Of a stretch of 64,000 nucleotides of DNA, positions 5,066-47,800 are shown piece after piece; positions within the stretch are counted from its first letter, which is position 1, and every line of letters starts with the position of its first letter. Origin of the DNA: Hydrolagus colliei (lineage: Eukaryota). The stretch spans positions 806,001 through 870,000 of the forward strand of contig JAYJKW010000106.1 of the NCBI GenBank assembly GCA_035084275.1. The letters run 5' to 3'. Made by a program: the position numbers and the translations under genes. Below the pieces are notes generated by a model. The model did no database searches. It saw only the letters and a list, made by a program, of their open reading frames with translations, and was not told where the DNA came from.

Positions 5066-6852
5066 AGACGCACAAATGCATGAATCGCAACAATGTTTCT
5101 TGTGGATAAAACAATGAAGTGATATGGGAATAACTCGGGGCATGTGGAGCTAGGTTAGAATTTCTGCTTCCCTCACGACTCTTTCCCAACCTCCTGAATC
5201 TCTACCGACCCTCCCCACTACCCTGCACATCTCGTACGCTCACTTCAGCACCTGACTGTTCAGCACCTTAGTACGTCCTCCCAATGTGAAATGCGCTCTA
5301 TGGATATAATATTGTTGTTGAAGTTGTTGTTCAACAACATCCTCAGTTTAAACTCTCATCTGAAAGGCCGCTCCAAAGGCAAAGCAATAAGTCGCCATCA
5401 AAATAATTAAATGACAATTTTGCTAACCAAGAGGCTCGAAGGCACCCAGTGAGCCAGACTGAAAACTTTGCGAATGGTACCGCAGTTCATAATCAGACGC
5501 GTGAAATGTCTGAAAGACTTATTGGGATTGTGTGGAGTGCTAACCAATTCAACATCAGATGTTTAAATTTCAGCAGTAATCAAAGCGACAATATTGGATT
5601 CCGAAGCCTTTGATTCTTCCCATTTCAGCCAAGTTTCTCAATATGTTATTTCAAATAATGTTACTCTAATAATAATCCTGATAATTCGTATCATTCTTTA
5701 TCATTTATTCAAAACGCCCACACCAACGCTCACAGTTTATATCTTGCAGCGATTTCTTTATTGTGAATTTTTGGTTGAAGCGTAAGGATATAACCATATT
5801 CTAGACCAACAAATAGACATTTAGTTCGCCTTCCATCTTCCTACTTGTTGCAGTCATGTATATCCTTGAACAACATATGTACTAAATGACAATAATTCCT
5901 AAAATAAACCTAAGCTCTTTCTTTCAATCAACACTTAGACCTTAAACAGTATCCTTAGGGAATATGTTCCAAAGCTTTACTGTTTGATTATTGGAATAGT
6001 GCTTCTATAGATTCGAAATACAAGGTAAACCTTGCGCACAGTAAAGTGTAAGATTCGTCCATAAAGTGACTGATCAATTGTATCTGTGGGACTGTTGGCC
6101 TGCAAAATTACAAAATCTCCCTGGACTATTTGAAATGGGAGCTGAGATATTGTGGCTTCCGCATGTACAGACAGCCAGTACCACATTTGCACAGCTATTT
6201 CGCAAATGCAATGCATCACACAGACACACAGTCACTCACACACACACATACAGACACAAACACACTCACAGTGAGAGAGAGGGAGAGACGGACAGAGATA
6301 GAGACATTTAGAGATTTGCTCCTTTGCGGCTGATAAGCATATCACAGCCAGGTGTATACAATGTAAGGCAGTATATGGGAATTGTATGGCAGTATTATCC
6401 TTTGTGGAAAGCGTTATCACCTTTAACGTGTTAAACTACAGCAGTGACCTCAGCGCCCTGTACACACTGTGGTCACAAAGGCCTTTGTCCCTCCCAAGCT
6501 GTGCCCAATGCTGTAGGTAATGGGTTCAATGCTGGTGAGTGGCCCCTGTGTAGACAATGTACACACACACTCCAGGCTGGGGAATACTGTGTGTAGGTGG
6601 GGGACATACACTCACATGTGCATCTCTGTGATTGTTTAGATACTTTAACAACAACACATTGCACTGACACACGGTGGCGTGTGTGGTGTTGTGGGCCTGG
6701 GTTTCATCAGGGGATGGACACCCAGCTGCCCCCAAATTACATCATTGGGGTGAATTGCGTAACTCAGGGCAGATAATGTTTTGTTTGCACACGGCACAAA
6801 CTCTCCCAGGATCATGCGGTAAAATTGCTCAAAGGAGCGTTCCCCACTTTCC

Positions 6853-6860
6853 TTTAAATA
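6853..6860 (+). promoter_or_regulatory. TATA-like box of GPCR gene 1
   Basis: TTTAAATA about 90 nt upstream of the ATG at 6945. Similar boxes lie at similar distances before GPCR genes 3 and 4. Confidence 0.4.
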
Positions 6861-6944
6861 AGACCCCGTTTCATGCTCTTGAGAAACACTATTTTTTGCG
6901 TGAGTTGCCTTCTGTAGAAGAGGATTCATTTTGTCTCAGTGAAG

Positions 6945-9458
6945 ATGGCAAATCTGATCATTTGGAGAATTGAAGACATTTACTACCCGATTCTCGCTGC
7001 TGTTGGAATTCCTGGCAAGTGATTTATCCACTTGATTATTTTAGGTGAGTTTGCACTAAAGTCTGTAACCTGACTCAGTTCAGCAATCTCACCTTTCAAT
7101 GAGCAAACGGTAGTTTATCTAATCCTTGAATTTCCCTGTTTGTCCCTTGAAATCTCCCTGCCCCTTTTCGTGATACTGACCGTTGACGATCAAATAAATT
7201 GTGAGGGCTTGAGTTCTTAACTAAGTGCGGTAGCGAGAATAAAAGCGTAGTAACAAATCTCCAGTTTCCTGCTTAAGTATTAGAGATTGTAGTGCGCCAT
7301 TCAAAAGAGAAAATAGATAAGGTGAACTTGATGGCATTTTGATTATGTAATTCTTTTTTGTTACTCCATACAATAATTATTTCACCATTTAGTAACTGTA
7401 TAGTGGTGGTTCGCTATTGTGAACATCTGACTACCGAATTTCCACACAACATCAAGTCGACTCGCTTTACAGTATATTCTGTGAAGAGATTTCAGACGAT
7501 AAGCAGACGATAAGATATTATATCTAACACAAGTTTCCAGACTAATCTCTATTATTCGCCGTTTACCGGCTGAATCGGGGAGGTGTGAGCTTTGGTTCCA
7601 TGAACGAACATTCGACTCCATCAAAAAACAAACAATCACCATTTGTGAAGCGCCTTTCACATGGGAGAGCGTCTGAACACTTACACACAGTGCTGGGTTG
7701 CAAAGAGGATGAATCTCTGTATGACGAATATTTATGTTCAAATTAAAGAATGCTGTGAATGTGGCTAATGGTAGAGAGATTGACTGATCCTCTGTGCAAA
7801 CCCAGCATTGTATGTCAGCACACAGTGAGGGGAGTGACCGGTGTTATCTCAGAAAGTTTGGGGCAGGACACGGCGAGGTATTTGCTCCATGTTAAGATGT
7901 CTTAAACAATAGACAATTTGCTGTATCAAACGCTAGGCATATGTGTTTATTAATTTTGCGTTTCTAAATGACCATTAAATGACCTCTCTCGGTTTATCTC
8001 AGTTTGAACGTATCTCTATTAATATGCCTACTTCTGTAAGTGAACGACGCATATTCTAAATGTGGCTGTATCTCTGCCAGCACCTCTCCCTTTCTCTCTG
8101 TTGGTATGTGTTTGTGTCTATTGTGATGTGTGTTTCTTTCTGAACATGAACGACAGTCTCTGTCTGTTACATTCGTTATCTGTGTTCTTGTCTTTCCCTT
8201 ACTGTGGCGTTTCTTCCGCATTTCGCTCTGTGTATGTTTGTGTTTGTTTATCTCTCCGACTATAGTGTATCCATCTCGCTCATTCTCTTTGTCTGTTTCT
8301 CTACACCACTCTCTCTCCAACGACCGCTCTCGCTCTCTCTCTCTTCCCCGCTCTCTCACTGTCGCTCAGTATATCTATCAATTTCTCCCCCCTCCCCCCC
8401 ACTCCCACCGTCCCACTACCCATTTTCTTTGTCACTTTTCGGTGGGCAGCCGGGTGGTGGACATCGAGACACGTTCAGCAAATTGTAATCTTTACCAATG
8501 AATATTTATGTCTGATCATTTCTTTCTCTTTATCTCTGTAGTCAACCTATTGGCGATTGTTGTCCTGGCTCGAGGGAGGTGCGGTCTCTCCAAGTGCATC
8601 TCCATGTATCTGTTGGCCATGTCAGTGGCTGATCTGACGGTGGTTACTTCCACGGTGATCTTTGCTGTCATTGTACCTATGTACTTCAGGAATCCGTTCG
8701 TGTTCATCACTCCCGTGTGCCGGGTGCTAATTATACTGGAATTTGCAACAAGGGAAACCTCTGTCTGGTTCACTATCGCTTTCACCTTTGATCGATATGT
8801 CGCCATCTGTTGGCAAAAACGAAAAGATAAATATTGCTCCGAAAAAACAGCTGCTGCCGTGATAGCGGGGCTGAGTGTTGTCTTCACTGTGAAAAACATT
8901 CCCTGGTATTTTGCATATGAATCCGAATTCACAATTGACAAGAAACCCTGGGGATGCATTCCTACACCAAACTTTTACACTTCACTCCCATGGATAGTGT
9001 TTGACTGGCTCGGCATCACTGTCACCCCTTTTCTCCCGTATGTTCTGATTTTGCTGCTCAACGCCCTGACTGTCAGCCACATACTGGTGGCCAGTCGAGC
9101 TCGCAGGAGATTGCGGGGACACAGTGATGGGGACAGAACTAGAGGTGAGAGAGACAGTGATCCAGAGATGAAAAACAGGAGGAAATCCATCGTTTTACTG
9201 TTTGCTGTTTCTGCCAATTTTATATTATTATGGATAGCATATATTCTGTTATCATTATACTGGAAGATTACACGCGACTATGTGTACTCGGGGTATAATG
9301 ATCCTAAGTATATTATCTATCGAACTGGCTTCATGTTGCAGATGTTGAGCTGCTGTACAAACACATTTATTTACGCTGTGACTCAGACTAAATTCAGAGA
9401 GGAGATTAAGAAAGTGCTGGCATTTCCTGTTACACTAATTGTGAGATTATTTCATTGA
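6945..9458 (+). CDS. GPR139/GPR142-like class A GPCR, gene 1 (2 exons, 328 aa)
   Basis: Exon 1 6945-7014 (MANLIIWRIEDIYYPILAAVGIP+G) with donor GCAAGT. Acceptor tctgtAG ends at 8541; exon 2 8542-9458 is in frame (VNLLAIVVL...). Seven TM segments, FDRY, NTFIY; resembles GPR139 (YY...GLP|ANIL, LEFSS..SIW.T...DRY.A.C). Confidence 0.92.
7688..7810. mobile_element. internally deleted MITE in the intron of GPCR gene 1
   Basis: Terminal inverted repeats cagtgctgggttgcaaagaggat / atcctctgtgcaaacccagcattg, with TA on the right flank. The longer copy is at 21464-21903. Confidence 0.55.
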
Positions 9459-9559
9459 CAAATTTTCCCACTGCTGTGTGTGTGTCTTTGTGACGCGATA
9501 GACACAGTGACTGGGTCCCTATGAGCCTACCCGTCCCATCATCATGTAGCACGTAATGT

Positions 9560-9860
9560 TGTCTTCTGGAGATCATCAAGTGAATAAAATCAATAATCAT
9601 GAATAAAAGTGCATCACAGAATATTCTGTGTAATGTATTGACTGTTAGTGTAGTTGTGTGCAAATCACAGCAGTGTTGCGTAACGTAGTGACTCACAAAC
9701 AGGTATGGATTCAAAATACCTATTTATAATTGTTTTTCTCGAGCGATTATCATGAATCGTGTGGCGTAAGGAAACTTGCCCAAAGTTGTACCATGTTCAG
9801 AATTGAACCCAGAACTCTCGCTTGTAAGTAGCGTGCTCTAACCACTGAGCTATAAGACAC
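9560..9860 (-). mobile_element. tRNA-headed SINE
   Basis: Minus-strand A box (TAGCTCAGTGGTTAGAGC) and B box (GGTTCAATTC) at ~9800-9855, with a degenerate body. Mirror copy at ~19430-19740. Confidence 0.7.
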
Positions 9861-10069
9861 TACACCTGGTTGTGTTTGTCAGTGCATGTGTCTCTGTTAG
9901 TGCTTGACTCTATGCCACTGCATGTGTCTGCGAAAGCAAAATAGCTGGAGAGACACAGATAGTGTTAGCACCACATGTATGTGAGCACGTAAACCTTTTT
10001 CCCAATGTATGTGTGTGTGAGAGAGAGAGCGAGAGAGAGAGAGGGACTGAGTGCTGTAATATATCTCGT

Positions 10070-10380
10070 TGCAGCGTCCTGTATCTCAGTTCTGGCACTC
10101 GCCATAAAAGCGTGAGACGTGTGTCCGAATCCAGGCAGGTTAGCTCGAAACCTTGGGAACGTTTCCTTACTGCATACGTCGAATTCTAATCCCTAAAAAA
10201 AAACTATAAGAAATTGTTCATTTCAATCAACGACTGTTTGTGGGGCACTGCTGTGCGCAATTGGATGTGCTGTATTGCTCACACATCTAACTTCAATTCA
10301 CTTTACGGTATATTGTTTGAAGCGGTTTGAGACACAGTTTAGTAAATTCCAACAGTGCTCTATCGAACGCAAGGATTAAT
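10070..10380 (+). mobile_element. tRNA-headed SINE with L2-type tail
   Basis: Colinear with the full-length SINE at 12055-12378. Mirror copy at ~18925-19225. Confidence 0.75.
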
Positions 10381-10489
10381 ATGAAGACGTAAAAGTTCGT
10401 TCAGAAGGAGCTAGTTAGACTAACACCGAAAGTAGAAACAGAATCTGGCAGTGGGAGACCGCATGTGGTTTGCTCAGTAAATTGGAGGC

Positions 10490-10790
10490 TTTGATTTGAC
10501 AATAAATATATTTTGCAAAGAACGCTTGCTCTGGGTTGAGTGTGATTTTGTGCGTGTAATACATTCGTTGTTTTGGGGGTTCGTATAATATACAACGAGG
10601 CGTCGATATCAGACAAGTCAACTCACTTCTTACGAATGGAAATCATTTAACCTGTTCGATACTATGACACTATCGTGTTCCCATTCACTCTGATTTTGTT
10701 GGCCAAACTTCTGACTGACAGCCACATTTTCGTGGCAGTAGAGCCCACAAATGATCGTGGGAGTGCGGAAAATAAGACGGGAATAAAGTT
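10490..10790 (+). pseudogene. decayed GPR139-like GPCR remnant (TM4-TM5)
   Basis: Translates with stops and frameshifts to SGLSVILCV*YIRCF, TSYEWKSFNLFDTMT and FPFTLILLAKLLTDSHIFVA. These match AGLSVVFTVKNIPWYF, TSLPWIVFDWLGITVT and LPYVLILLLNALTVSHILVA of gene 1. Confidence 0.75.
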
Positions 10791-11074
10791 TTGAGTGAGT
10801 GAATGTGTGTACAATTGACTGCCGCGTTTCACCCACACATTCCATCGTCCATTCGTGTTACAATATGTTCTTTGATGCGCTTAGAGACATTTTGAGGAAG
10901 TGGTATTGCGCTATATCGATTCTATGTATTAGTATCATTCATATTGTAAACAATTTACCCTTTCCATGGATAGGCCATAGTGCATTTCAGTTCACTGTTG
11001 CTCACGCAACCCTCTCCATGTCGAGGTATAACATTAACTCTTTCCTGATCCTTTGTAAATGAATTCTTAGTCTT

Positions 11075-12700
11075 CTCACTGGGGAACTATATAATTACTG
11101 AGTTCACAGTTTAATTTGCTTAGTGATGTACAAACGTATCACAACAACAAAATTACACTCGCATAGAGTTCATAGATTGAAGCCTTGAGTTACATGTGGA
11201 ATTATGACCTGATCGATTCTAAGCATTAGTATTATCAATAATATTGTCATTTTCCCCATTCCAAGAATGATACAAGTTACCTCTCGTCACTCCCTTCTTC
11301 ACACATCCCACCCCACATAAAGCGATCATTTGAACTCAGTCTTCAAAAATGGTTCGTAACCAACACACTGCGAAATTAATTAAATACTTGATAGACAGTT
11401 TTAATTTACTTGATGATGTACAAACGTATAAATCATATACATTGAACTCTTGAGCTACATGTGGAGTTAGTGATATTCAATAAACCATCATGACAACAAC
11501 TTTCTAACTGTATGTCGTCCACAAAATATGGAGTCAGTTCACTTTACAGTGTATCCTGTCAATCACTACTGATACTTTTCGAAGGCATGAGATGAGCAAC
11601 CACAACAATAATAAAATTACACTTGTATAACGCCTTTCACGTCAGGAGGACGTCCCAATGCGATGGCCAGTTACGGTCTCAAAGCTGAACTGAGGAGAGA
11701 TCGGGTGAGACGGAAGGCGGGGATTAATGATAAGAATCCTTGCATATATTATTGCATTTGATAACTTCTACATGTCTCCGAGCGCTTCACAGACTATGCT
11801 GTACTGTGCCGCAGGAAGGCGTGGAGATACTGGGTAAACATACAAGAACATAAGAATCAGGAGCAGAGGAAGAATATAACTCCATATGTCCCTTATTCGC
11901 CTAATTCCCATATCCTTTAATACCTTGATCGATAATAAATCTATCAATTCCAGGCTTTAATGGGTTCAAGCAATGAGCATCTATAGTTTTCGGGGAAGAG
12001 AATTCCATAAATTAACTTATATCTGAGTGAATAATTGTATTGTCAACTCAGTGCGACCTCCTGTAGCTCATTGGTTAGAACACTTGTCTTGCAAGCTGGG
12101 GAGACCAAGCTGGGGAGACCTGTGTTCGAATCCAGGCATGTCAGCGCGAAACCTTGGGCAGGTTTCCTTACTCCACACACACGCCTAATGATAATCACTC
12201 ACTAAAAAAACCACAATAATAAAATTGGTCATTTCAATCGACGACTATGTGTGCGCAATTCGCTGGCACGATTCGCCCACAAATATATAAAATAAATTCA
12301 CCTTGCAGTATATTCTGTGAAGCGCTTTGGAACGTTGATAAGATATGGAAAGCGCTATATCAAATGCAAGGATTATAAAGTGCTGACCCCAAATTTTAAG
12401 TCTTTGAACCTTGGTTATAGTTTCTCATTCTGCCATATTCAAGAGAATACAGGCCTAGTTTTAATAGACAAACCTGTCTTCACAGCCGAGCTCCTTTATC
12501 CCAGGAACAAACATAGGGGATGATTCGCTTGGGGAATTAATTAATTACTTAATTCAAAGTGTAAATTACTTGGTGATGTACCAACGTATAACAACAATAA
12601 AACTTTACTTGTATAGAGCTCATAGATTGAAGCCTTGAGTTACATGTGGAATTATGACTTGATCGATTCCAAGCATCATTATTATAACTAATATTACTAA
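11075..12700 (+). repeat. three dispersed direct copies of a ~100-170 bp unit (about 11075-11245, 11375-11470, 12530-12700)
   Basis: Shared core gtgatgtacaaacgtat...ttgagttacatgtggaattatga. All three copies are mirrored in the right arm. Confidence 0.75.
12055..12378 (+). mobile_element. full-length tRNA-headed SINE with Deu-like core and L2-derived tail
   Basis: A box TAGCTCATTGG, B box TGTTCGAATCC, core tgtgtgcgcaattcgctg, tail gtgaagcgctttgg...aaagcgctatatcaaatgcaag. Mirror copy at ~16935-17255. Confidence 0.85.
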
Positions 12701-12719
12701 TAGAGAATTAAATAAATAA

Positions 12720-13150
12720 ACTACCATCTGAGTATCAAAAAACAGGGGAAGGACTGAGCCCTAATTTGAAGACTGTGTTCATTTGTTATCATTTCTCCAA
12801 CCAGGGAAAATATTCTGTCACTGCCTACTCTGTCTTGCCCCTTAATTTTCTTATAGGCGACGATAAGATCCCCTATAATACTTCGATATTCTCGAGAACA
12901 TAGGCCTAGATGGCTCATCTTATCGTCATAGCTGAACCCCCTTTACCCATGAACCAAACTTGTTGGGCACCCACTTTAAGTGGAGTAATTCCTTTCATAA
13001 ATAATGAAGCCAAACCTGCACACAATATTCTAGGTGCGTTCTCAGGAAAGGCCTCTTCAGTTGCAGCAAGACTTCCCAACTCTTATATTCTAACGCTTTT
13101 GTAATAAACGCCAACATGCCTTTTGCACAAAATACAAAGATCTGTATTAT
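12720..13150 (-). mobile_element. CR1 LINE RT fragment, degenerate
   Basis: Minus-strand translation GDLIVAYKKIKGQDRV..RIFSLVGE matches CR1 GDLIEVYKIMRGFDRA..KLFPLVGE. Mirror copy at ~16190-16590 (+). Confidence 0.8.
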
Positions 13151-14304
13151 TCTGTGCACAGCAAAACTAAGATTTTCCTCTGCACCTAATTATTTCCCTT
13201 TCCCTTTCCTTCCACATATTTAATGGGGTTTGATACAAGATGGATAGCCAGCAGAACGATTATCCATTAGCCTCGCTTCCTCCCTTGCCTCCTCTAAGGC
13301 CACGAGGGAATGGTTTATTTGAAGGTGGAGTTGGGTTCAGGGAGTTCAGATGTTACCATTATCATTTGCTTGGCCGAAGACATGGCAATGATAAGTGAGG
13401 TGAGCTCTGCAGGAAGCAATATATAAATCGATGTTGTTGTTGTTGTTGTCAATGTCGGCAATGTAATCAACGTACGTGCAAAACAGCGGTGTCATCCCAA
13501 TGTGATGACTGTTCAAATACACGCCAACAAACCAAGAGAGAGAGAGAGAGAGACACAGAGAGAGACACACACACAGACACACATACCTCTGTTTACCAGC
13601 AGTCAGGAGGAAACCGCTTGTTGTTCGGTTAGCGGAACACTAGCCCCCAGCCCCCGCCCCCCCTCACCCCACCCCGCTCCTCCTTGGGTAATAATACCTA
13701 CAAAATAATAATATTTTTGTTCACTCAATCCACGACTGTTGGTTGAATGTCTCTGTGTGCGATTCATTGGCTGCCACTTTTCGCCCACAAAACACACAGT
13801 CACTACACTTTACAGTGTGTCCTGTGAAGCGCTTTGAGACGTCTGTCAAACTTGCAAAATGACAGGATGATGAAAAGGCAAAATTATTATTTTATTGTTC
13901 ATCATTAATACTATTATTGTTGAGTACAATAGTTTACAGTGAAGAGTTATTAATACAATGATTATTATTGATATGTATTAATTTATTAATCAGGAAGTAT
14001 TGGTGATAATTATTATCACTCATCAATCACCGACTTAATGGGTAGAATGATGTGAAGTTTTTGCTCTGGAGCCGGTGTCTAGGTGAGAGTCGCTTTCTGT
14101 GTCTGTCTGTGTCTGCTTGTCTCTCTCACACAGTATTTATACTCTCTCTCCCTCTGTCTCTCTCTCTCTCTCTCTGTCTCTGATGAAACTCTCTCTGCTG
14201 ATGTGTCCTGCTTCCCATTTGTCACTTTCAGAATATCTTGGGTTATGTTATTAGCTCTGGCCCTCCCCTTCTCTCCCTTCCTCCCTCCACCACTGCTATA
14301 CTAT

Positions 14305-14460
14305 GTGTAGAGACACAGTAAAGCTCCCTCTACACTGTGCGCCCATCCACACACCAGGTTAGCGTGAGTGACACAGTAAAGCTCCCTCTATACTGTGCCT
14401 CCGCCGACACTCCTAGGTCAGAGTTACAGACGCAGTAAAGCTCTATCTATGCTGTGCTGT
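14305..14460 (+). repeat. ~59-bp minisatellite, 3 copies, in the palindrome spacer
   Basis: acacagtaaagctccctctacactgtgc repeated at about 14313, 14371 and 14430. Confidence 0.8.
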
Positions 14461-15179
14461 CAGCTGTGGGTGTTAAAGCTGTAATGTGTTGTGTGGTCCA
14501 AGGTGGATCAACAGCAGAAACAGGAGAAAACGTTTCAAGCACTTGGTCCCAACATTGTCAATATTGACAATCTGTGCCTTACAGTCTCTGGGATACGGTA
14601 ACATGGGTATATCCCCCAGAGAGGGGGTGAGAGATGGGAGGGAGTACAATAAAAATAATAATCCGTCCATTTGATGAAGCGCTTTTGACGTCTGATCGAC
14701 ATCTTACAGCGCGTCATAAAATAAACCGTAAAGTGAATTGAAGATGTATTTGTGGGGGAAGCGTGGCAGCCAATTGCGCACAGTCATGTCCGGACAAGCA
14801 ATCGTGGATTAAAATGACCAATTATGTATTAGTGTGGGATATTTGTATTTGATAGCCTCTTCCTCTTTACATATTTGTAAAAGCTCTTGCAGTCTGTCTT
14901 TATATTCCTCGCTAGTTTGCCCTCATATTCAATTTTCTCCCTCTTAATCAATGTTAGCCTCTACTTTGTTGATCCCTAAAGCTCTTCCAATTCTCTGGTT
15001 TACTGCTTATCTTTGCTGTTTTATAGTTTTCACATTTGACTTTACACGTTCCCTAACTGCTCTAGTTAGCCACATTTGGACGAACTATACTGTGGCATTC
15101 TTATTCCTCAATGGAAAACGGAGGTAATATAAAGCTTGGCAGCAGGATAACCGTCGGAGTGGAATTAAGGAGGGCCTCG

Positions 15180-15460
15180 ATAACTCGATTTACAAGCGTG
15201 CCTGTGTGTGTATCCAGGCAGGTCAGGGCGAAAATTTGGCCAAGTTTACTTACACCACATGCCTAATAATAATCCCTCCAATACAAATAAGGCTAATTGG
15301 TCATTTGCATCCACGTTTGTTTGTGGGACACTGCTATGTGCAACTGGCAGCCGCACTTCGTGCAAAAATGTAGTCAATTCACTTTACAGTATATTCTGTG
15401 AAGCGCCTTGTGAGATCGATAATATACGAAAAGCGGTATATCAAAAGCAAAGACTTTAAT
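15180..15460 (+). mobile_element. SINE, same family as 12055-12378
   Basis: Core tgtttgtgggacactgctatgtgcaactggcagccgc and tail aagcggtatatcaaaagcaa. Confidence 0.75.
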
Positions 15461-18400
15461 GTGTTCAAAAGAAAAATATGTTCTTTGTTCTGTCGCTCAA
15501 TCTTCCTTCGGTAACGTAGAAGAGAAACGTGGACATGAGCAACTTAACCAGAGCTAGACACAGGAGAAGCTTGGTGGCGATTTGGTGGCGCTTGCCTGCT
15601 CTATGCAAACCGCCTTGAAATTTGCCTATAAACCGTATGGCCTCTACACGGCAAATACAATCCTGTGACATCTTTCCCACTGAACTCCTGGCAATGGGTG
15701 GGAAGTGGGGAGTAACTAGATCAGATCCGAAAGTTATACGGCAGAAGGTCAGCAAGTGATTGGAAATCTGGAAAACATCTTAGAGGAGTTGGTTTGTTGG
15801 CGTGTATTTGAACAGTTATCACGTTGGGATGACACCGCTGTTTTCCACGTACGTTGATTACATTGCCGACTTTGACAACAACAACAACTTCGAGTTATAT
15901 ATTGGCTCCTGCATAGCTCACATCACTGATCACTGCTCTCCTCATTGACCATGTCTTCGGCCAAGCAAATGATAATGGTAACATCTGAACTCCCTGAACC
16001 CAACTCCACCTTCAAATAAACCATTCTCTCATGGCCTTAGAGGAGGCAAGGGAGGAAGCGAGGCTAATGGATAATCGTTCTGCTGGCTATCCATCTTGGA
16101 TCAAACCCCATTAAATATGTGGAAGGAAAGGGAAAGGGAAATAATTAGGTGAATACAGAAGAATACAGATCTTTGTATTTTGTGCAAAAGGCATGTTGGC
16201 GTTTATTACAAAAGCGTTAGAATATAAGTGTTGGGAAGTCTTGCTGCAACTGAAGAGGCCTTTCCTGAGAACGCACCTAGAATATTGTGTGCAGGTTTGG
16301 CTTCCTTATTTATGAAAGGAATTACTCCCCTTAAAGTGGATGCACAACAAGTTTGGTTCATGGGAAAAGGGGGTTCAGCTGTGACGATAAGATGAGCCAT
16401 CTAGGCCTATGTTCTCGAGAATATCGAAGTATTATAGGGGAACTTATAGTCGCCTATAAGAAAATTAAGGGCTAGGACAGAGTAGGCAGTGGCAGAATAT
16501 TTTTCCTGGTTGGAGAAATGATAACAAATGGGCACAGTCTTCAAATTAGGGGACAGTCCTTCCGCTGTTGTTTGATACTCAGACGGTAGTTCATTTATTT
16601 AATTCTCTATTAATAATATTATTCATAATGATGATGCTTGGAATCGATCAAGTCATAATTCCACATGTAACTCAAGGCTTCAATCTATGAGCTCTATACA
16701 AGTAAAGTTTTATTGTTGTTATACGTTGGTACATCACCAAGTAATTTACACTTTGAATTAAGTAATTAATTAATTCCCCTAGGGAATCATCCCATATGTT
16801 TGTTCCTGGGATAAAGGAGCTCGGCTGTGAAGACAGGTTCGTCTATGAAAACTAGGCCTGCATTCTCTTGAATATGGCAAAATGAGAAACTATAACCAAG
16901 GGTCAAAGCCTTAATATTTGGGGTCAGCACTTTATAATCCTTGCGTTTGATATAGCGCTTTCCATATCTTATCAACGTTCCAAAGCGCTTCACAGAATAT
17001 ACTGCAAGGTGAATTTATTTTATATATTTGTGGGCGAATCGTGCCAGCGAATTGCGCACACAAAGTCGTCGATTGAAATGACCAATTTTATTATTGTGGT
17101 TTTTTTAGTGAGGGATTATCATTATGCGTGTGTGTGGAGTAAGGAAACGTGCCCAAGGTTTCGCCCTGACCTGCCTGGATTCGAACACAGGTCTCCCCAG
17201 CTTGGTCTCCCCAGTTTGCATGACAAGTGTTCTAACCACTGAGCTACAGGAGCTCGCACTGAGTTGACAATACAATTATTCACTCAGATATAGTTTAATT
17301 TATGGAATTGTCTTCCCCAAAAACTATAGATGCTCAGTGCTTCAACCCATTAAAGCCTGGGATTGATAGATTTGTTATCGATCAAGAGATTAAAAGATAT
17401 GGGAATAAGGCGGGACATGTGGAGATATATGCTTCCTCTGCTCCTGATTCTTATGTTCTTGTATGTTTACCCAGTATCTCCATGCGTTCCTGCAGCACAG
17501 GACAGCCTAGACTGTGAAGCGCTCGGAGACATGTAGAAGTTATCAAATGCAATAAAATATGCGTGGATTCTTATCATTAATCCCCGCCTTCCGTCTCACC
17601 TCATCTCTCCTCAGTTCAACTTTGAGACAGTAACTGGCCATCGCATTGGGACGTCCTCCAGAAGTGAAAGGCGTTATACAAGTGTAATTTTATTATTATT
17701 GTGGTTGCTCATCTCATGCCTTCGAAAAGTATCAGTAGTGATTGACAGGATACACTGAAAAGTGAACTCACTCCATATTGTGTGGACGACATGCAGTTAG
17801 AAAGTTGTTGTCATGATGGTTTATTGAATATCACTAACTCCACATGTAGCTCAAGTGTTCAATGTATATGCTTTATACGTTTCTGCATCATCAACTAAAT
17901 TAATACTGTCAATCAAGTATTTAATTAATTTCGCAGTGTGTTGGTTACGAACCATTTTTGACGACTGAGTTCAAATGATCGCTTTATGTGGGGTGGGATG
18001 TGTGAAGAAGAGTGTGACGAGAGGTAACTTGTTTATTCTTGGAATGGGGAAAATGACAATATTATTGATAATAATGCTTAGGATCGATCACGTCATAATT
18101 CGACATGTAACTCAAGGCTTCGATCTATGAACTCTATGCGAGTGTAATTTTGTTGTTGTGATATGTTTGTACATCACTAAGCAAATTAAACTGTGAACTC
18201 AGTAATTAATTAGTTCCCCAGTGAGTTGTAAAATCAGAATTATGTTACAAACTATAAGGAAAGAGTTAATGTTATAGATCGACATGGAGAGGGTTGTGTG
18301 AGGAACAGTGACCTGAAATGCACTATGGCTTATCCTTGGAGAGGGTAAATTGTTAACAACATGAATAATAGTAATACATAGAATCGATATAGAGCCGTAC

Positions 18401-18509
18401 CACTTCATCAAAATGTCTCAAAGCGCATCAAAGAATATATTGTAACACGAATGGACGATGGAATGTGTGGGTGAAACGCGGCAGGAAATTGTGCACACAT
18501 TCACTAACT

Positions 18510-18810
18510 CAAACCTTTATTCCCGTCTTATTTTCCGCACTCCCACCATCATTTGTGGGCTCTACTGCCACGAAAATGTGGCTGACGGTTAGACAGTTGG
18601 CCAGCAAAATCAGAATGAATGGGAGCCGCCGGAGTGTCATTATATCGAACAGGTTAAATGATTCCTATGCGTAAGAAATGAGGTGACTTGTGTTATATCA
18701 ACACCTTATTGTATTTTGTACAAACCCCCCCCCAAAACAGCGAATGTATTACACGCACAAAATCATATTCAAACCAGAGCAAGCGTTCTTTGTAAAATAT
18801 ATTTATTGTC
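18510..18810 (-). pseudogene. decayed GPR139-like GPCR remnant (mirror copy)
   Basis: Minus strand reads SYA*ESFNLFDIMTLRRLPFILILLANCLTVSHIFVA, a clear TM5 homolog with an in-frame stop. Confidence 0.78.
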
Positions 18811-19817
18811 AAATCAAAGCCTCCAATTCAATGAGCAAACTACATCCGGTCTCCCACTGCCAGATTCTGTGTCTACTTTCGGTGTTAGTCTAATTAGCTC
18901 ATTCTGAACGAATGTTTACGTCTTAATAATAATCTTTGCGTTTGATAGAGCACTTTGGGAATCTTCGAAACTGTGTCACAAACCGCTTCAAACAATATAC
19001 CGTGAAGTGAATTGAAGGTGGGCAATACAGGACATCCAATTGCGCACAGCAGTGCCCAACAAACCGTCGTTGATTGAAACGAACAATTTCTTATTGGGTT
19101 TTTTTAGGGATTAGGATTCGACGTATGCAGTAAGGAAACTTTCAAAAGGTTTCGCGCTAACCTGCCTGGATTCGGACACACGTCTCAAGCTTTTATGGCG
19201 AGTGCCAGAACTGAGATACTGGACTCTGTAAAGAGATATATTACAGCAATCAGTCCCTCTCTCTCTGTCTTTCTCTCACACACATACATGGAGAAAAAGG
19301 ATTACGCGCTCACATACATGTGGTGCTAACACTCTCTCTGTCTCTCCAGCTATTTTGCTTTCACAGACACATGCAGTGGCATAGAGTCAAGCACTAACAG
19401 AGACATATGCACTGACAAACACAACCAGGTGTAGTGTCTTATAGCTCAGTGGTTAGAGCACGCTCCTTACAAGCGAGACATCTGGGTTCAATTCTGGGCA
19501 GGGTTCAACTTTGGGCAAGTTTCCTGACACCACACGATTCATGATAATCGCTCGAGAAAAACAATTATAAATAGGTATTTTGAATCCATACCTGTTTGTG
19601 AGTCACTACGGTACGCAACACTGCTGTGCTTTGCACACAACTACACAGTCAATACATTACACAGAATATTCTGTGATGCAGTTTTATTCATGATTATTGA
19701 TTTTATTCACTTGATGATCTCCAGAAGACAACATTAAGTGCTACTTGATGAAGGGACGGGCAGGCTGCTAGGGACCCCATCACTGTGTCTATCGCGTCAC
19801 AAAGACACAAACATTTG

Positions 19818-22613
19818 TCAATCAAATAATCTCACAATTAGAGCGACAGGAAATGCCAGCCCTTTCTTAGTCTCCTCTCTGAATTTAGTCTGAGTCACAG
19901 CGTAAATAAATGTGTTTGTACAGCAGCTCAAGAACTGCAACATGAAGCCAGTTCGCCAGATAATATATTTAGGATCATTAGACCCCGAGAACCAAAGGTC
20001 GTTTGTAATCTTCCAGTATAGGAAATTTAGAGTAAATGTCATCCATAATAATATAAAATTGGCAGAAACAGCAAACAGTAAAACGATGGATTTCCTCCTG
20101 TTTTTCATCTCTGGATCACTGTCTCTCTCACCTCTAGTTCTGTCCCCATCACTGTGTCCCCGCAATCTCCTGCGGGCTCGACTGACCACCAGTATGTGTC
20201 TGACAGTCAGGGCGTTGAGCAGCAAAATCAGAACATACGGGAGAAAAGGGGTTACAGTGACGCTGAGCCAGTCAAACACTGTCCATGGGAGTGAAATGTA
20301 ATAGTTTGGTATATGAATGCATCCCCAGGGTGTCTTGTCAATTGTGATTTCGGATTCAAATGCAAAATACCAGGGAATGTTTTTCAAAGTGAAGACAACA
20401 CTCAGCCCCGCTATCACTGCAGATGCTGTTTTTTCGGTGCAATATTTATCTTTGAGTTTTTGGCAACAGATGGCGACATATCGATCAAAGGTGAAAGCGA
20501 TAGTGAGCCAGACAGAGCATTCCCTTGTTGAAAATTCCAGTATACTTAGCACCCGGCACACGGGAGTGATGAGCACGAACGGATTCCTGAAGTACACAGG
20601 AACAATGTACGAAAAAATCACCGTGACAATAACCACCGTCAGATCAGCCACTGACATGGCCAACAGATACATGGAGATGCACTTGGAGAGACCGCACCTC
20701 CCTCGAGCCAGTACAACAATCGCCAATAGGTTGACTACAGAGACAAAGAGAAAGAAAAGATCAGACATAAATATTCATTGGTAAAGATTACAATTTGCTG
20801 AACGTGTCTCGATGTCCACCACCCGGCTGCCCACCGAAAAGTGCCAACGAAAGTGGGTAGTGGGACGGTGGGAGTGGGGGGGAGAGGGGAGAAAGTGATA
20901 GATATACTGAGCGTCAGTGAGAGAGCGGGGAAGAGAGAGAGAGAGAGAGAGAGTGGTCGTTGGAGAGAGAGTTGGGTAGAGAAACAGACAAAGAGAATGA
21001 GCGAGTTGGATACACTAAAGTGGGATAGATAAACATACACAAGCATACACACCGGGACATGCGGAAGAATCGCCACAGGAGGCGAAAGACACAAGAACAC
21101 AGATAATGAAAGTCACAGACAGAGACTGTCGCTCATGTTCAGAGAGAAACACACATAACAGTAGATGCAAAGACACACCGACAGACAGAAAGGGAGATGT
21201 GCTGGCAGATTCAGAAAATGAGTCGTTCAGTTCAAAAGTAGGCATACTAATACAGATACTCACAAACTGAGATACACCGAGATACATAAACGTCATTGAG
21301 AAACGGAAAATAATTAAATAAATAAATAATTAAATAATCTAGCGTTTGATACAGCAAATTGTCTATTTTTCAAGACATCTCAAAATGCAGCAAGTATCTC
21401 GCCGTGTCCTGCACAAACTTTCTGAGATAACACCGGTCACCCACCTCACTGTGTGCTTACGTACAATGCTGTGTTTGCACAGAGGATCAATCAATCGTTC
21501 CTCTACCAATTGCCGCATTCAATGAATTATTTAGTTTGAACAAAATAAGTCATCAGAGGCAATCGAATACATACATTTGACTCAACTGACCCCACTGCTG
21601 CATTTAAATACAATGCAGTGTTTGCATTAAACCTGTCTCATCCTTTGAGAGATTTGGACGACCACAGTTGGCGTTGTATCAAAAGCACGAATCGTTGCAA
21701 TTGAGTCAATGATCTTCAACCAATATCGGTCTGTCTGTACAACGTGCCAATGTAAAATGCCTTTGCAAACAGTACCTTTGGTTAGAGGAGTCAATTGGAT
21801 ATATTCGATTGTATCTGATAATATTTATTTGTTGAAATTAAAGAATTATTTGAATGCGGCAAATGGGAGAGGGTAGATTGATACTGTTTGCTACCCAGCA
21901 TCGTATGGAAATACACAAACGCTCCCCTGTTTCAAAGGTGATTGTTTATTTGTTGATGCAGTTTCAATTGCGAATATGGAACCAAAGCTCACAACTCCCT
22001 GATTCAGCCGGTAAACTGCGACCAATAGAGATTAGTCTGGAAACCTGCATTTGATATAACATCGTATAATATCTTTATGTCTCCTCGAATCGCTTCACGG
22101 AATATACTGTAAAGCGAATCGACTTCATTAGGTGTGGAAATTCGGGAGTCAGATGTTCACAACAGCCAACGACCACTATAAGGTAACTAAATGGCTAAAT
22201 GTTTTTTATATTGCATCGTTTAAAAATTTGCATAATCAAAATTCCATCGGCTTCACATGATCTATTTTCTCCTTTGAATGACTCCCTGCAATCTCTAATA
22301 CCTAAGCAGGCAAACTGGAGATTTGTTACTAAGGTTTTATTCTTGCTACCGCACGTAGTTAAGAACTCACGTCCTCACAATTTGTTTGATCATCAGTGGT
22401 CATTATCCTGAAATAGGAAACAGGGAATTTCACGGATTACACAAAGCACAATTTGCCAATTGAAAGGTGAGATTGCTAAACTGAGTCAGGCTACAAACTT
22501 TACTGTAGACTAACCTAAATACTGAATTCGATAAATCACTTGCCAGGAATTCCAACAGCAACGAGAATCGGGAAGTAAATGTCTTCAATTCTCCACATTA
22601 TCGGATAGGCCAT
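19818..22613 (-). CDS. GPR139/GPR142-like class A GPCR, gene 2 (2 exons, 328 aa)
   Basis: Exon 1 22613-22544 (MAYPIMWRIEDIYFPILVAVGIP+G) with donor GCAAGT. Exon 2 20734-19818 follows ctgtAG. 44 of 305 exon-2 residues differ from gene 1 (manual count). Confidence 0.92.
21464..21903. mobile_element. TA-flanked MITE (Tc1/mariner-type ends), ~440 bp
   Basis: TA|caatgctgtgtttgcacagaggatcaatc ... gattgatactgtttgctacccagcatcg|TA; imperfect TIRs of about 85 bp. Confidence 0.6.
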
Positions 22614-25600
22614 TTTCACGGAGACAAAATGAATCCTCTTCTACAAAAGGCAGCTCACGCCACAAACAGTGGTTCTCAAGAGCATAAAACGGGGTCTTAC
22701 TTAAAGGAAAGTGGGGAACTCTCATTTGAGCAATTTTGCAGCAAAATCCTGGGAGAGTGTGAGCCGTGTGCAAACAAAACATTATCTGCCCTGAGTTACG
22801 CAATTCACCCAATGATGTAATTTGGGGGCAGCTGGGTGTCCATCCCATGATGAAACCCAGGCCCACAACACCACACATGCCACCTGGTGTCAGTGCAATG
22901 TGTTGTTGTTAAAGTATCTGAACCATCAGAGAGATGCACATGTGAGTGTGTGTCCCCCACTTACACACAGTATTCCCCAGCCTGGAGTGTGTGTACATTG
23001 TCTACACAGGGGCCACTCAACAGCATTGAACCCATTACCTACAGCATTGGGCACAGCTTGGGAGGGACAAAGGCCTTTGTGACCACAGTGTGTACAGGGC
23101 GCTGAGGTCACTGCTGTAGTTTAACCCGTTAAAGGTGATAACGCTTTCCACAAAGGATAATGCTGCCATACAATTCCCACATACTGCCTTACATTGTCTA
23201 CACCTGGCTGTGAAATGCTTATCAGCCACAAAGGAGTAAAATATTCATGGGTTAAATATATTGCACGGTATACGCGTGTGTCTCTCACTTTTTGTGTATG
23301 TGTTTGTGTGTGTGTGTCTCCCTCTTTCTCCCTGACATCTGTGACTCTGTCGCTGTCTCTAATCCTTTCTCTCCCTCTCTCTATCCCTCTCTCTCATTTT
23401 TTGTATCTGTTGCTGTAGACACGGGTGTTTGCATCTGTCCCTCTGCATCTGTCCCTGTGTGTGCGTCTGTGTTTGTCTCTATTTGCCTTTTTAGGTGTAT
23501 GTGTGTCTCCCTCTCTGAACATTTCTCTCTCTAACTGTATCTAACCTTGTCTGTCTCTCCCTCTCTCTCACTGTGACTGTGTGTGTGTGTGTATGTGTTT
23601 CTGTGTGAAGCATTCCGTTTAGTAAGTAGCTGTTAAATTGAGTTTTCTGGCTATACATGCGGATCTAACAATATCCCAGCTCAGAACTCAAATAGTGCCG
23701 GGAGATACTGTAAATTTCTTGGCCACGTTTCTCACAGACGCAATTGCTCAGTCATGTTATGGATGAATCTCGCACTTTACTGTGCGCAAAACATCTCTTA
23801 TATTTCTAATCTAGAGTCGCAATTTCTAGTGATAAAACTAAAGCTGTGGAACATATTCCCTCGGAGACTGATGAAGCACTAAGTTTTAATCAAGAAAAAA
23901 AAAGGTTAGATTTGTTTTAGGAATTTTTGTAACACAATATATGTTGTTCGCGGTCATATATTGTTGCAAGAAGTAAGAAGGTGGAATGTGAACGAAATGA
24001 CTGTCGATCCAGAGTTTCGTTATATCTTTATGCTTCAACCAACAATTCACAACACAGAAATCGCTGTAGGATATATTCTGTGAGCATTGGTGTGGGCGTT
24101 TTGAAGAGATGATAAGGAACCATCAAAATTGTAATGATGTTTTATCAGTAGATCATTATTTCGAATAACACATTGAGAATGTTGGTAGAAATGGGAAGAT
24201 TCAAAGGCTTCGTACTCCAGTTGTGGCGCTGCAACTACTACTGAAATTTAAACATCTAATGGTGAATTGGTTACCACTCCACACAATCTCAATATGACTT
24301 TCAGTCATTTCACGCGTCTGGTTTTGATCTGCGGTACCATTTGCAAAATTGCAGTGTGGCTCATTAGGTGCACGCGAGACTCTTAGTAAAAACAAATTGT
24401 GATTTCATTGTTTTGCTGGGGACGTGATTCATTGCTGGGGGTGCGGCCTTTTAGATGAGAGTTTAAACTACGATTGTTCTTCAACAAAAACTTCCAACAA
24501 AAGAAACCTCTGTAGAGCGCCTTTGCGATTGGGAGGACATCTAATGTCGCTGAGCAGTCAGGTCCTGAACCGAACATGCGAGAGATGCAGGATAGTGGGG
24601 AGGGTCGGGGTAGAATTAAGATGCGTGAGACAGTTGTGATCGATATATCCGTGGACCTTTGTAACCTAAAGCATGTAGAACTTGTTTTCGCCAGCTTCTT
24701 GTATCACTCATGCAGAAACATGTCGTCATGTTTTCCACATTTCAAAGGCTACCAAGTGTGAAGGGTAACGTCCAAATTAAATTGCAAATATAACTGTTTT
24801 CGCTAAAATATTGAGAGAGAATGAGTTATCCACAAACATTGAAGAATGACAATCACCGGAATTGAAAGTGCATTCCCTCCTGGAGGCGCAAACCTTCGTT
24901 ACATAATTGTTACAAGTGTGACTGCCCTCTGCCTGCCTCTCCGGCTCACCCTTTCGCTCACTCACTGCCTGCCTGTTCATTCACTGCTCCCTGACTGCCT
25001 GCCAGACTCACTCATTCGCTGCTCGTCTCTCTCGCTGCCGGCCTAACTCACTACCAGGTCCCAGCACCGCCGTGATCCTATCCACCATTGGCTAACAACG
25101 TATATTAGCGATCAAAGCAACGTTAGACGGGGTTCGCCTATAATAAAAATAATAATGCTGCCCCCCCCCCCCCCCCCCCTCCCCCTCAACTGCCCAACCT
25201 ATGGTACACGCGCCACAATGGAGGCGAGCTCCAAGGTTCAGAAACCACTGCAGTTCTCTCTCTCACGGCAGGGTAGCGAGACCCGCATTCACACCAACCT
25301 TCCCCTACGTCTCTCCCCTTGCCGTCTTTGCCCCCTTTCTCCCTGGTCCCACTTCATCGACTGTTTGTGGACAACTGCTGCGCGCAAATTGGCTGCCGCG
25401 TTTCTCCCACAGATAAACAGTCAATGTTTCTACTCTTGTTCCCCCTATGACGACCACTCGCACATGCTGTGGTCTATATAGCTTTCTCCCCCCTTTCGAC
25501 GCTATTTTCAGCTCTCTATATCGACGTACCGTGGCACGCTACTGCACTCTGTGAAGCGCTTTGAGACGTCGATAATATGTGGAAAGCGCTATATAAATGT

Positions 25601-27056: not shown

Positions 27057-27248
27057 AACTTAGTGTTGTCAGAAATTTACGCTGGAATATCTGATTTGTA
27101 CACTCTCATCTACATTTAATGACGGTAGCGTTTGGATCAAATCAACTCAAATATTCATTGATATTCATTGATATCCTGAAGGTCGCTACATGATTAATAG
27201 CCGCTGATGCCACGTTATCGATCTCATTCTACTTCAGTTATCCTCTAT

Positions 27249-44818: not shown

Positions 44819-47800
44819 TTAGTTAACCAATTTCAGGATCAGTCTGAATGGATATTTCACCAGATGTTTCACTTCCGCTCTGAAGTTGGATTGTGTGACT
44901 GCATAAATGACGGTATTTGTGCAGCAACTTGAAAGCTTAAGCATGGCTGCCACTTCCACGAACACAATGAATGTGTTTTCATTGTCGAAAATATTCGCTG
45001 AAATTCGGTAAAGTATGAATTCGATAACGTACATCAGCCACAACATTATGAAGCTTCCCGATATGGTGAAGAGCAAAACGATGGATTTCTTACGATTTTG
45101 CATTTCTGCGTCATTGCAATTGTTACTTTTCTGGCTCAGTAGGTTTCTGCGGATTCTGATGGCCGCTAAAATGTGTCCAACGGTCACCACGTTCATCAGC
45201 AAAATCAGAAAGAATGGAGCGAATGGGGTTGTTATTATGTCAAACCATTGAAACACAATCCATCCCAGAGAGGTGTAGAAAGCTGGTTTGTTACCGCAAT
45301 ATGCAGGCCCGTTGTCCCATATAACCCAAGGCTCAAATTTGAAGTACCAGGGAACGCTGATGAAACAGCTCAGGGCAGAGATCACTCCTATAACCACGGC
45401 TGCTGTTCTCGCAGTGCAATAAATTGTTTTCAATTTCGGACAACATATAGCTACTAGGCGGTCAAAGGTGAAAGCCACTGTGAACCAGACTGAAAGGTGT
45501 GTCACGGCTGACATCAACACAAATCTGAGTGCACACACGGGAATGGTGTCCAGAAATATGATACTGCAACAAGCAAAATAGATCTGGTTGAATATCACAT
45601 CGCTGATGGTGACCAGAAGATCACCCAATGCCATGGACACCAGGTAGCGTGTGGTACATTTAGAGAGACCACACCTTCCACGGGACAGGACCACAATGGC
45701 CAAAATGTTCGCTGGAAGACAATGAAGAACAAGCACACAAATGGACTATTGAGTTGCGTAAGTTAGATTATAATAAAAATAAATAAACTTTGCGTTTGAT
45801 GTAACGCTTTTCACATCTACGAGAGGTCTCAGAGGAATTCACGGAATGTACAGTTGAGTTAGTTGGCTACATATATGTGAACGAAAATATTGTGGTTGTT
45901 TTTGGACAGATTCATATTAGGCGTGGGGAGCAAATTTGCTCTGGGTTTTGCACTTGACCTGCCAGGATTCGAACACAGGTCTCACGAATGTCTGTCTCGT
46001 GCTCCCATCACTGAGATACATCACTCCATATAGTTAATGGCATTTTTGCTCAAACAGCAGTTTCTGTTGGGAAGGTGAGTCTGGCAATTTTCATAGATCA
46101 GGCTTCTGAGTCACTGGATTCAAGCGGACACATGCCAGGAGATCGACGCACACACTAAGCTGATGTAAGTTGCAGCGCTGCAGATACAATCAACTTAAAG
46201 CAAGGCAATTCAGAGTGAGATGATCAGGAGCTGGATGAGCGCAAATTTCTGGATGCTAAATGATGACAAGACAGAGGCCATACTCTTTAGCTCTGGACAA
46301 CGTTTTCATTCGTATAGTTCTCACATTCTCCACCTTCCTGGTCTGCACCTAAAACACTCCGAAATTGCCATGCAAACTTGGGGTCAGGTTCGACCCCCAA
46401 CTCTCCTTCCTCCTCCACATCTGGTCCCTCACCATCACCGCTTTCTGCCACCTCCGACGGATCGCCCGCCTCCTGAAATACCTCACCTCAAAAGCCGCTG
46501 AAAACTTAATCCATGGCTTTGTCACCTCTCGGCTGCAATATTACAACTCCCTTCTCGCCGGTCTCCCCGCCATCACAAACCACAAAATCCAGCTCATTCA
46601 AAACTGCCGCCCGCATACTCGCCCGTACCAAACTTCTCTCCCCCATCACCCCAGTCTTGCAGACTTCACGGGCTCACCATCCGAAGAGGATAGACTTCAA
46701 GATCCTCACACTTGTTTTCACGTTCCTCCACTCCTCTGCACCCCCTGCCTCTCTGATCTCCTCTCCCCCAAAACCAGCACGCGCTGCCTTCGCTCCGCCA
46801 GATCTGGCGTCCTCTATTTCCCAAAATCGTCCGCTCCACCCTCGGCGGCCATGTCTTCAGCCACTACGACCCGAGGCTCTGGAATTTCCTTCTTCACTCC
46901 CTTCGCATTGCAACTCTCTTCTCAGGTTTACGTCACAGTTTAAGATCTTTTTCTTCGACCGCTCCTTTGTTCTCCTTTCTGCCCCTGCCCCTGGCTCGGT
47001 CCTGGGATCCCCTACTGTGAAGCGCTCTGAGACGCCGCCTGGCGTGGAGGGCGCTATATAAGTCGAAGTTGTTGTTGTTCATTACGGAGTTCGGAAGGCG
47101 TGCAGGAGATCATATTGGTAAATTTTGGTTTGTTCAGACATGGCCAGTAATTTGAAGTCTATCTCTGGATATTTAAGATGATGCTGCAATATTCCACAGA
47201 ATTATTGTGAAAAGATTCAAAATACTTTAACCTTGTTCCTTTTCTGAATGCTACCATTTTGATAGAGCGAAACTGCATAACATATATCCAATCGAATTAG
47301 CGGACATAAATGACGAAATAAAGTTTGGGATTTTCATGGCTTGATTTTTAAAAAATGTTGTCAAACAACTCATCTACAACACGGACAATCAGTATTCAAA
47401 TAATCGTGATTATCCAGTGTTTTCTGATTGGAATCCACAGCTCAAAGGCGTTACTGCATTCCTCAAGAAGCTTGAATCTAACTTTTCATGGAACATAGCG
47501 ATTTCAATATCCTCAAACTCAACTTCAAATCATTCCCTGCCCCGGTAGCTGTCTACCCCTCAACCTGCTCACAACTCTGGTCCTTCCAGCCATCCAGCCA
47601 AGTTGACGAGTTGACGCTCGTCAACTTGAGCCTCAACGCATCCACGATACATTCTTTAGAACCGTTTAGAAATCGGACATTAAATTATTGCTTTTTGACA
47701 GTGACCACGGTCGCTCTGATTCATCTACTCATCACTAACATGTTTGACTGCCTGATTCAGAAGTCATATCTCGCCTCTGATTCAAAAGGTTGTGGGCTCG

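Follow-up and report, generated by a model that had tools for sequence, protein, structure and literature searches.

Why should two neighbouring receptor genes differ mainly on the side that faces their ligand and be identical, silent positions included, across the third intracellular loop (ICL3)? The question is raised by a gene pair in a 64,000-nucleotide stretch of the Hydrolagus colliei genome (assembly GCA_035084275.1, contig JAYJKW010000106.1, positions 806,001 to 870,000, forward strand; hereafter the window), which contains four class A G-protein-coupled receptor (GPCR) genes recognized by Pfam 7tm_1. Two of these, genes 1 and 2, stand tail to tail, one on each arm of an 8.3-kb inverted duplication, and are referred to here as the twins. 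Residues differ between them at 38 of 150 positions on the outer, ligand-facing side compared to 11 of 178 on the inner side (Fisher P = 1.6e-6), and every test run supports this concentration of divergence on the ligand-facing half. Both are probably intact members of an expanded GPCR family of cartilaginous fishes, paralogs that arose by inverted duplication and whose binding has diverged while signalling has been kept.

The twin genes and their inverted duplication

The arms and the exons of the twins are as follows, with TM denoting a transmembrane helix and pLDDT the predicted local distance difference test score.

5205..13535, + strand: left arm of the inverted duplication
13536..15788, no strand: single-copy spacer between the arms, about 2.25 kb
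15789..24608, - strand: right arm, pairing with 5205-13535 as 24608-15789
6945..7014, + strand: gene 1 exon 1, N-terminus and first half of TM1, 23 codons and one base (tblastn with family proteins at 6957-7013; phase fits exon 2)
7015..8541, + strand: gene 1 intron, GC donor, AG acceptor, phase 1 (predicted splicing, from homology and phase)
8542..9458, + strand: gene 1 exon 2, second half of TM1 to the stop codon, class A GPCR (Pfam 7tm_1, E = 5e-25; model pLDDT 87)
22544..22613, - strand: gene 2 exon 1 (tblastn with family proteins; phase)
20735..22543, - strand: gene 2 intron, GC donor, AG acceptor, phase 1 in TM1 (predicted splicing, from homology and phase)
19818..20734, - strand: gene 2 exon 2 (Pfam 7tm_1, E = 7e-21)

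Gene structures were deduced from homology and reading phase, and the two-exon layout is common to all four receptor genes of the window. Both twins carry a GC splice donor (7015-7016 and 22543-22542), while the corresponding phase-1 donor of genes 3 and 4 is GT. A single-exon model beginning with the in-frame ATG at 8508 was ruled out, because this ATG is intronic, lying before the acceptor, and a first exon resembling those of the family is present. After splicing, the proteins have 328 residues each and are 85% identical. They score 88.8 and 75.4 bits against Pfam 7tm_1 (cut-off 30.5), and both contain the class A anchors Asn1.50, Asp2.50, DRY, Trp6.48, and Tyr7.53. An AlphaFold model of exon 2 (pLDDT 87) has the seven-helix fold and matches class A structures with Z-scores of 24-26.

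Frames and splice sites are intact in both genes, where the divergence rate of the downstream DNA predicts 1.8 frameshifts (P0 = 0.17) and 2.5 stop codons (P0 = 0.09). Both copies thus look functional from their sequence, with the qualification that intact frames by themselves are weak evidence.

Divergence is concentrated on the outer half

Exon 2 (from 8542 and 20734) contains 44 amino-acid differences, the number given in an earlier reading of this window made from the sequence alone, and exon 1 adds five for a total of 49 of 328; two further differences in the open frame are intronic. That sequence-only reading had also described clusters in outer TM2, TM3, the second extracellular loop (ECL2), and outer TM5 and TM7, as well as 11 differing residues in the 21 codons directly after the identical tract. 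Both descriptions were confirmed, and the densest patch of the exon is found here, with 11 nucleotide differences in 20 nt from position 9236.

9234..9296, + strand: outer TM6 and third extracellular loop (ECL3) of gene 1, 11 of 21 residues differing, including positions 6.51, 6.52, 6.54, and 6.55
19980..20042, - strand: the corresponding divergent patch, outer TM6 and ECL3, of gene 2 (by register with gene 1)
8811..8855, + strand: end of TM3, second intracellular loop (ICL2), and start of TM4, on the cytoplasmic face, with four differences (W/C, R/L, S/T, A/S)

Outer and inner sides were set by helix anchors taken from conserved motifs, and the differences, mapped in this way and through an alignment to GPR139, are non-random, as the sequence-only reading had supposed. 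Rotating the pattern of differences along the protein equalled the outer bias in only 4 of 328 rotations, and the bias holds when the membrane midpoint is moved four residues either way (P = 3e-4 or smaller). Variability within the family is also higher on the outer side, and the bias holds after adjusting for it (P = 0.002); only one of 89 near-invariant family columns differs between the twins.

Whether the binding pocket, as opposed to the outer half in general, is the site of divergence is moderately supported. A list of 16 pocket positions was drawn from the helix positions named as pocket or ligand-facing for GPR139 in the portion of PMC8807744 consulted; these were mapped by helix anchors and by a pairwise GPR139 alignment at about 22% identity, not by three-dimensional distance, and the list leaves out three GPR139 ECL2 pocket residues and the entrance residues 2x66 and 7x35, with TM4 numbering uncertain. 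The twins differ at 8 of these 16 positions, compared to 41 of 312 in the rest of the protein (P = 0.0007) and 15 of 87 in the remainder of the outer helix set (P = 0.008). Glu3.32, Phe3.33, Arg3.36, and Trp6.48 are kept in both. Two results weigh against a pocket-specific interpretation. With a broader list of 37 positions that generally line the pocket in class A receptors, 10 of 37 differ (P = 0.03), and the enrichment is gone against the remaining outer helix set (13 of 68; P = 0.24). In addition, pocket status adds little beyond side and family variability (P = 0.09).

The arms are a mosaic of differently diverged blocks

Divergence between the arms falls into six blocks: 23% (5205-6309), 3.5% (6310-6792), 17% (6793-8262), 6.6% (8263-10329), 11.6% (10330-11094), and 4.8% (11095-13530). 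The introns of genes 1 and 2 differ by about 17% over 7015-8380, and the contrast between the intron (219 of 1311 positions) and the downstream DNA (248 of 3876) is highly significant (P = 2e-26). Since one duplication date cannot give such unequal blocks, the simplest interpretation is that the arms have since exchanged sequence, exon 2 included, and the data support patchy conversion of whole blocks. Allelic haplotypes assembled twice were ruled out, as the arms are up to 23% different with many insertions and deletions. The 480-base block at 6310-6792 lies 150-630 bases upstream of the start codon, between the 23% and 17% blocks, and may be either a converted tract or a constrained promoter or 5' exon.

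Within the exon, 5 of 122 inner-half silent sites have changed, far under the intron rate (P = 3e-5), while the 8 of 74 changed outer-half silent sites are indistinguishable from it (P = 0.21). Ten of the 13 silent differences lie within two codons of a replacement compared to 5.7 expected (P = 0.014), a count based on few events, several of them at directly adjacent bases; under a null with the flank's own clustering the closeness remains (P = 0.018), and some cases may be single multi-base mutations. Rejection of conversion near sites under selection would leave silent differences beside replacements (PMC3924837, consulted in part). Within the window, a third paralog was considered as donor of the TM6 patch and rejected, since the window has no other copy of this stretch and genes 3 and 4 match neither twin there.

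Selection on the two halves

In a codon model with a shared synonymous rate (dS) of 0.070, which agrees with the 0.067 of the downstream flank, the ratio of nonsynonymous to synonymous rates (dN/dS) is 2.3 for the outer half (above 1, P = 0.004) and 0.41 for the inner half (below 1, P = 0.027), and the two halves differ strongly (P = 6e-9). Purifying selection acts on the inner half. For the 16 pocket positions, dN/dS is 7.6, 4.4, 2.4, and 1.7 on neutral clocks of 0.067, 0.11, 0.19, and 0.27, respectively; they are thus above 1 on the intron clock (2.4, P = 0.013) but not on the far-upstream clock (P = 0.14). A site-mixture test on the two sequences is significant (P = 0.001), and none of about 1500 neutral overlays reached 38 of 49 differences on the outer side.

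Positive selection on the outer half is therefore likely, but its support depends on the neutral clock chosen, and a number of observations speak against it. Two sequences do not permit a real site model, and dN/dS over the whole gene, at 1.17-1.20, does not depart significantly from 1 (P = 0.54). The outer value falls to 1.8 when the outer half's own dS is used (P = 0.12) and likewise to 1.8 when the TM6/ECL3 patch (codons 255-275) is removed (P = 0.06), and it drops to 0.85 on the intron clock (0.19) and 0.59 on the far-upstream clock. Thirteen of the 62 changed codons carry two or three changes, and the selection tests may be inflated because multi-base mutations and conversion both raise them; gene conversion is known to yield false positives in such tests (PMC3924837, in the sections available). 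The inner side is also not wholly conserved: three of the four differences around ICL2 fall at well-conserved family positions, with gene 1 as the departing copy, which at 8811-8840 carries W, R, and S in place of the C, L, and T found in 85-93% of homologs. Judging from sequence, these gene 1 residues could indicate altered G-protein coupling or relaxed constraint. The earlier proposal of diversifying selection on the binding pocket thus stands in part, in the outer-half bias and the elevated outer dN/dS, and is weakened by its dependence on the clock and by the moderate support for the pocket itself.

Other members of the family provide a control. Disjoint protein pairs with 78-92% identity and at least 280 aligned positions were compared, with one unnamed record dropped; the cross-species pairs are unverified orthologs, labels are those of cluster representatives, and the pairs are not phylogenetically independent. 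Among 35 same-species pairs the median outer/inner ratio of differences was 1.71, with 31 of 35 above 1, while among 27 cross-species pairs the median was 1.0, with 14 of 27 above 1 (P = 7e-5 between the two sets). Pocket positions changed in 115 of 560 comparisons in same-species pairs versus 49 of 432 in cross-species pairs, and the median pocket/overall ratio of the cross-species pairs was 0.46. By this pattern, species retain the pocket and paralogs alter it, at least as far as sequence comparison of such pairs can indicate. The twins lie near the top of the same-species range, as their outer/inner ratio (3.96) and their pocket count (8 of 16) are each reached by 5 of 35 pairs.

These results suggest the following history. 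The inverted duplication would be as old as the intron and far-upstream DNA (17-23%), and blocks of 0.5-2.4 kb, including exon 2, may later have been brought back to about 5-7% by exchange between the arms. In outer TM2, ECL2, outer TM5-TM7, and ECL3, differences would have been favoured by selection or shielded by it. If so, it would follow that each twin senses its own small molecules or peptides, bound in the pocket typical of class A receptors, and that both couple to the same G protein, a proposal drawn from their sequences.

A rather unlikely alternative is that the outer half simply drifts under relaxed constraint, that the resulting mismatch then escapes conversion while conserved stretches are homogenized, and that no selection for specificity is involved. 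The outer dN (about 0.16) is below the intron divergence (0.19), which speaks for it, and the intron-like outer silent rate, the clustering of silent with amino-acid changes, and the greater family variability of the outer side all fit as well. However, the pocket positions exceed the intron clock, though not the far-upstream clock; side matters beyond family variability; and the retention of the pocket in cross-species pairs indicates that it is not free to drift in an established gene.

The identical 134-nt tract

The longest identical run between the twin frames, compared without gaps, is 134 nt. As the sequence-only reading had stated, it covers 9102-9235 (20174-20041 on the minus strand) without a single silent change, and it is bordered by a silent difference at 9101 and the next difference at 9236.

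9102..9235, + strand: identical tract of gene 1, end of TM5, ICL3, and TM6 to Trp6.48 (frame comparison, AlphaFold model)
20041..20174, - strand: identical tract of gene 2
12531..12679, + strand: 149-nt identical non-coding run, partner 16779-16631
12248-12364: 117-nt identical non-coding run

The same reading had suggested that gene conversion homogenized the G-protein-coupling face. Such a specific event, or selection for conversion there, is improbable as the source of the run, even though larger-scale conversion between the arms is evident and a second identical run, of 82 nt, covers the first intracellular loop (ICL1) and inner TM2. The run itself is real, being unlikely if differences were evenly scattered (P = 0.0009 by base, 0.0036 by codon), and it remains so under a null weighted by family variability (P = 0.007), a result that counts against constraint as its full explanation. 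When the amino-acid pattern is fixed and only silent changes are scattered, the run is unremarkable (P = 0.16 by permutation): the tract has 28 silent sites, in which 1.7 silent changes are expected and none is observed (P = 0.18), and their absence becomes significant (P = 0.01) only at a local neutral divergence of at least 15%. The tract's protein sequence is also kept in five Callorhinchus paralogs (32-37 of 42-44 residues, compared to 56-63% elsewhere), identical runs of similar or greater length (149, 117, and 105 nt) occur in non-coding parts of the arms, and the cytoplasmic face is not uniform, as the ICL2/TM4 start and helix 8/C-tail carry four residue differences each, together with three silent-codon differences.

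Given the unremarkable lack of silent changes, the constrained protein, the long runs in non-coding DNA, and the differences elsewhere on the cytoplasmic face, nothing points to an event directed at the G-protein face, and ICL3-specific conversion was discarded as unnecessary. The run would instead reflect mainly protein constraint on ICL3 and inner TM6 combined with the low silent rate of a converted block; eye-catching as it is, it requires no special mechanism. A 166-base element is present twice per arm at about 85% identity (11080-11245 and 12530-12695, partners 18220-18058 and 16779-16615), and one copy holds the 149-base identical run.

Decay of gene 1 or of both genes as young pseudogenes, or local identity created by assembly polishing across the arms, is very improbable: the whole-gene dN/dS of 1.2 and the gene 1 W, R, and S in ICL2 would suit it, but the frames and splice sites are intact despite the lesions expected, the inner half has dN/dS below 1, the twin branches in the tree described below are equally long (0.098 and 0.097), neutral overlays never place 38 of 49 differences on the outer side, and most blocks of the arms, at 3.5-23%, are too different for alleles.

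The receptor family and its relatives

A search with exon 2 returned 1,793 matches among 5,050 candidates. The best 120 of these comprise 119 chondrichthyan entries (sharks, rays, and Callorhinchus) and one unnamed record, 49-65% identical to the query, the closest protein among them being 65% identical to the twins. At least 47 come from one shark species and at least 31 from another, still among the best 120. Most of the 120 are labelled 'probable GPR139' by automatic annotation, and the Atlas clusters retrieved with a Callorhinchus homolog are labelled GPR139 and FMRFamide-receptor-like. No NCBIfam family was found for the receptors. Likewise, no description of the expanded family was found in the literature, although subscription journals and bioRxiv supplements were outside the search, so one may exist; the examined text of five papers made no relevant use of GPR139, and neither did the 12 of 24 PMC8455134 supplements examined.

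A tree was built from 51 proteins chosen from 273, all of them other than GPR139 and GPR142 proper. It joins the twins to five Callorhinchus paralogs (support 100/100), which makes a holocephalan source of the DNA most likely, and nests the twins within an expanded chondrichthyan clade of 38 rows (98/94). Motifs in ICL1, TM3, ICL3/TM6, and TM7 are common to the twins and the chondrichthyan paralogs. The holocephalan subclade (the twins with P0001, P0006, P0008, P0023, and P0031) has an ICL3 five residues longer than that of the shark members shown. With its many paralogs and the outer bias of same-species pairs, the family evolves like a ligand-diversifying repertoire, as far as these sequences suggest.

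A second vertebrate group also labelled 'probable GPR139' (represented by coelacanth P0229 and P0270-P0387) is next-nearest in both the profile search and the tree. It includes sharks, bony fish, amphibians, reptiles, and the coelacanth, each species with roughly a single entry, and its members are 46-66% identical to the coelacanth protein; no mammal or bird appears among the named rows of the 120 matches listed for this group. In the tree it is possibly sister to the expanded family, at an open fork with long branches.

Comparison with known receptors

The best sequence match among solved structures is GPR139/GPR142 (PDB 7VUG, 9M42), receptors activated by L-Trp/L-Phe with Gq/11 coupling, with E = 3e-8 for the single sequence and 8e-19 for the family profile. 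The model of the twins shares their fold (Z = 25.2, root-mean-square deviation 2.9 over 257 residues, 22% identity), although fold searches do not single out GPR139, as many class A (peptide) receptors tie. Glu3.32-Phe3.33 and the absence of proline at 7.50 are common to the twins and GPR139/142. In contrast, position 7.50 is Thr in 120 of 120 homologs and Phe in GPR139/142, and position 6.51 is Tyr in gene 1 and Phe in gene 2 compared to Arg in GPR139/142, a residue found in 1 of 120 homologs. According to the parts of PMC8807744 consulted, Arg6.51 is specific to GPR139/142 and needed for activation, and inner TM5 and TM6 form part of the G-protein interface of GPR139. GPR139 is also one gene, while the chondrichthyan family has dozens of paralogs per species. 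Since two defining residues are absent and the fold does not single out GPR139, the receptors were not filed as GPR139, and because the twins are without Arg6.51, the Trp/Phe binding mode of GPR139 is not directly transferable to them.

Human red and green opsins are, like the twins, neighbouring GPCR duplicates with blocks homogenized by exchange. Opsin divergence peaks at ligand-facing residues with linked silent changes, as in the Teshima and Innan model (PMC3924837, excerpted), and the twins may share this pattern. Unlike the opsins, the twins are inverted copies, their intron is more diverged where that of the opsins is homogenized, and their differences extend over many outer sites.

The nearest solved relatives of the twins are GPR139 and peptide receptors. 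In the chemoreceptor families OR, TAAR, V1R, V2R, and T2R, GPCR genes form clusters and have expanded within lineages, and the outer half of the receptor varies while the signalling half stays constant. The twins share this clustering, expansion, and outer variability, but by sequence they belong to none of these families.

Other features of the window

The other two receptor genes are as follows.

44819..49092, - strand: gene 3, same family, exon 1 at 49092-49002 and exon 2 at 45711-44819, 45-47% identical to the twins
58619..60901, + strand: gene 4, same family, exon 1 at 58619-58697 and exon 2 at 60006-60901, 46-47% identical to the twins

Pfam identified a C2H2 zinc-finger array gene or exon (35003-35731) that lies between receptor genes 2 and 3. 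Open frames resembling the ends of open reading frame 2 (ORF2) of long interspersed nuclear element (LINE) retrotransposons were seen at 26224-27105, 27877-28586, 39725-40374, and 46353-46940, with related copies elsewhere in the window; the three of these frames scanned gave no Pfam match, so the LINE assignment is a reading of the frames. An assembly gap at about 31290-31810 (504 N in the window) lies beside short tandem duplications at 30707-31046.

Significance for cartilaginous fishes

The evolutionary process described here is known from opsins and is textbook material, and receptor repertoires commonly expand through duplicates that diverge on the ligand side; the family, however, seems to be undescribed. 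The twins make a good test pair, being 85% identical with a nearly unchanged inner face and half of their mapped pocket positions altered. It is conceivable, though this is offered only tentatively, that they are a snapshot of an unrecognized cartilaginous-fish chemoreceptor repertoire from the GPR139 branch of peptide-type GPCRs, in which selection on the outer half would yield new specificities and the signalling half would be held by conversion and constraint. Cartilaginous fishes have a mean of 43.8 olfactory receptor genes, the smallest sets among the vertebrate groups listed in the part of PMC10869828 consulted, compared to the at least 47 entries of the present family from one shark among the best 120 of 1,793 matches; a paucity of GPCRs has also been reported for these fishes (PMC8455134, in the portion consulted). 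If the chemoreceptor interpretation were true, the repertoire would be at least as large as the whole known olfactory repertoire, and its role could lie in smell, taste, skin, or immune sensing. A sensory role for the family would thus bear on how sharks and chimaeras detect chemicals.

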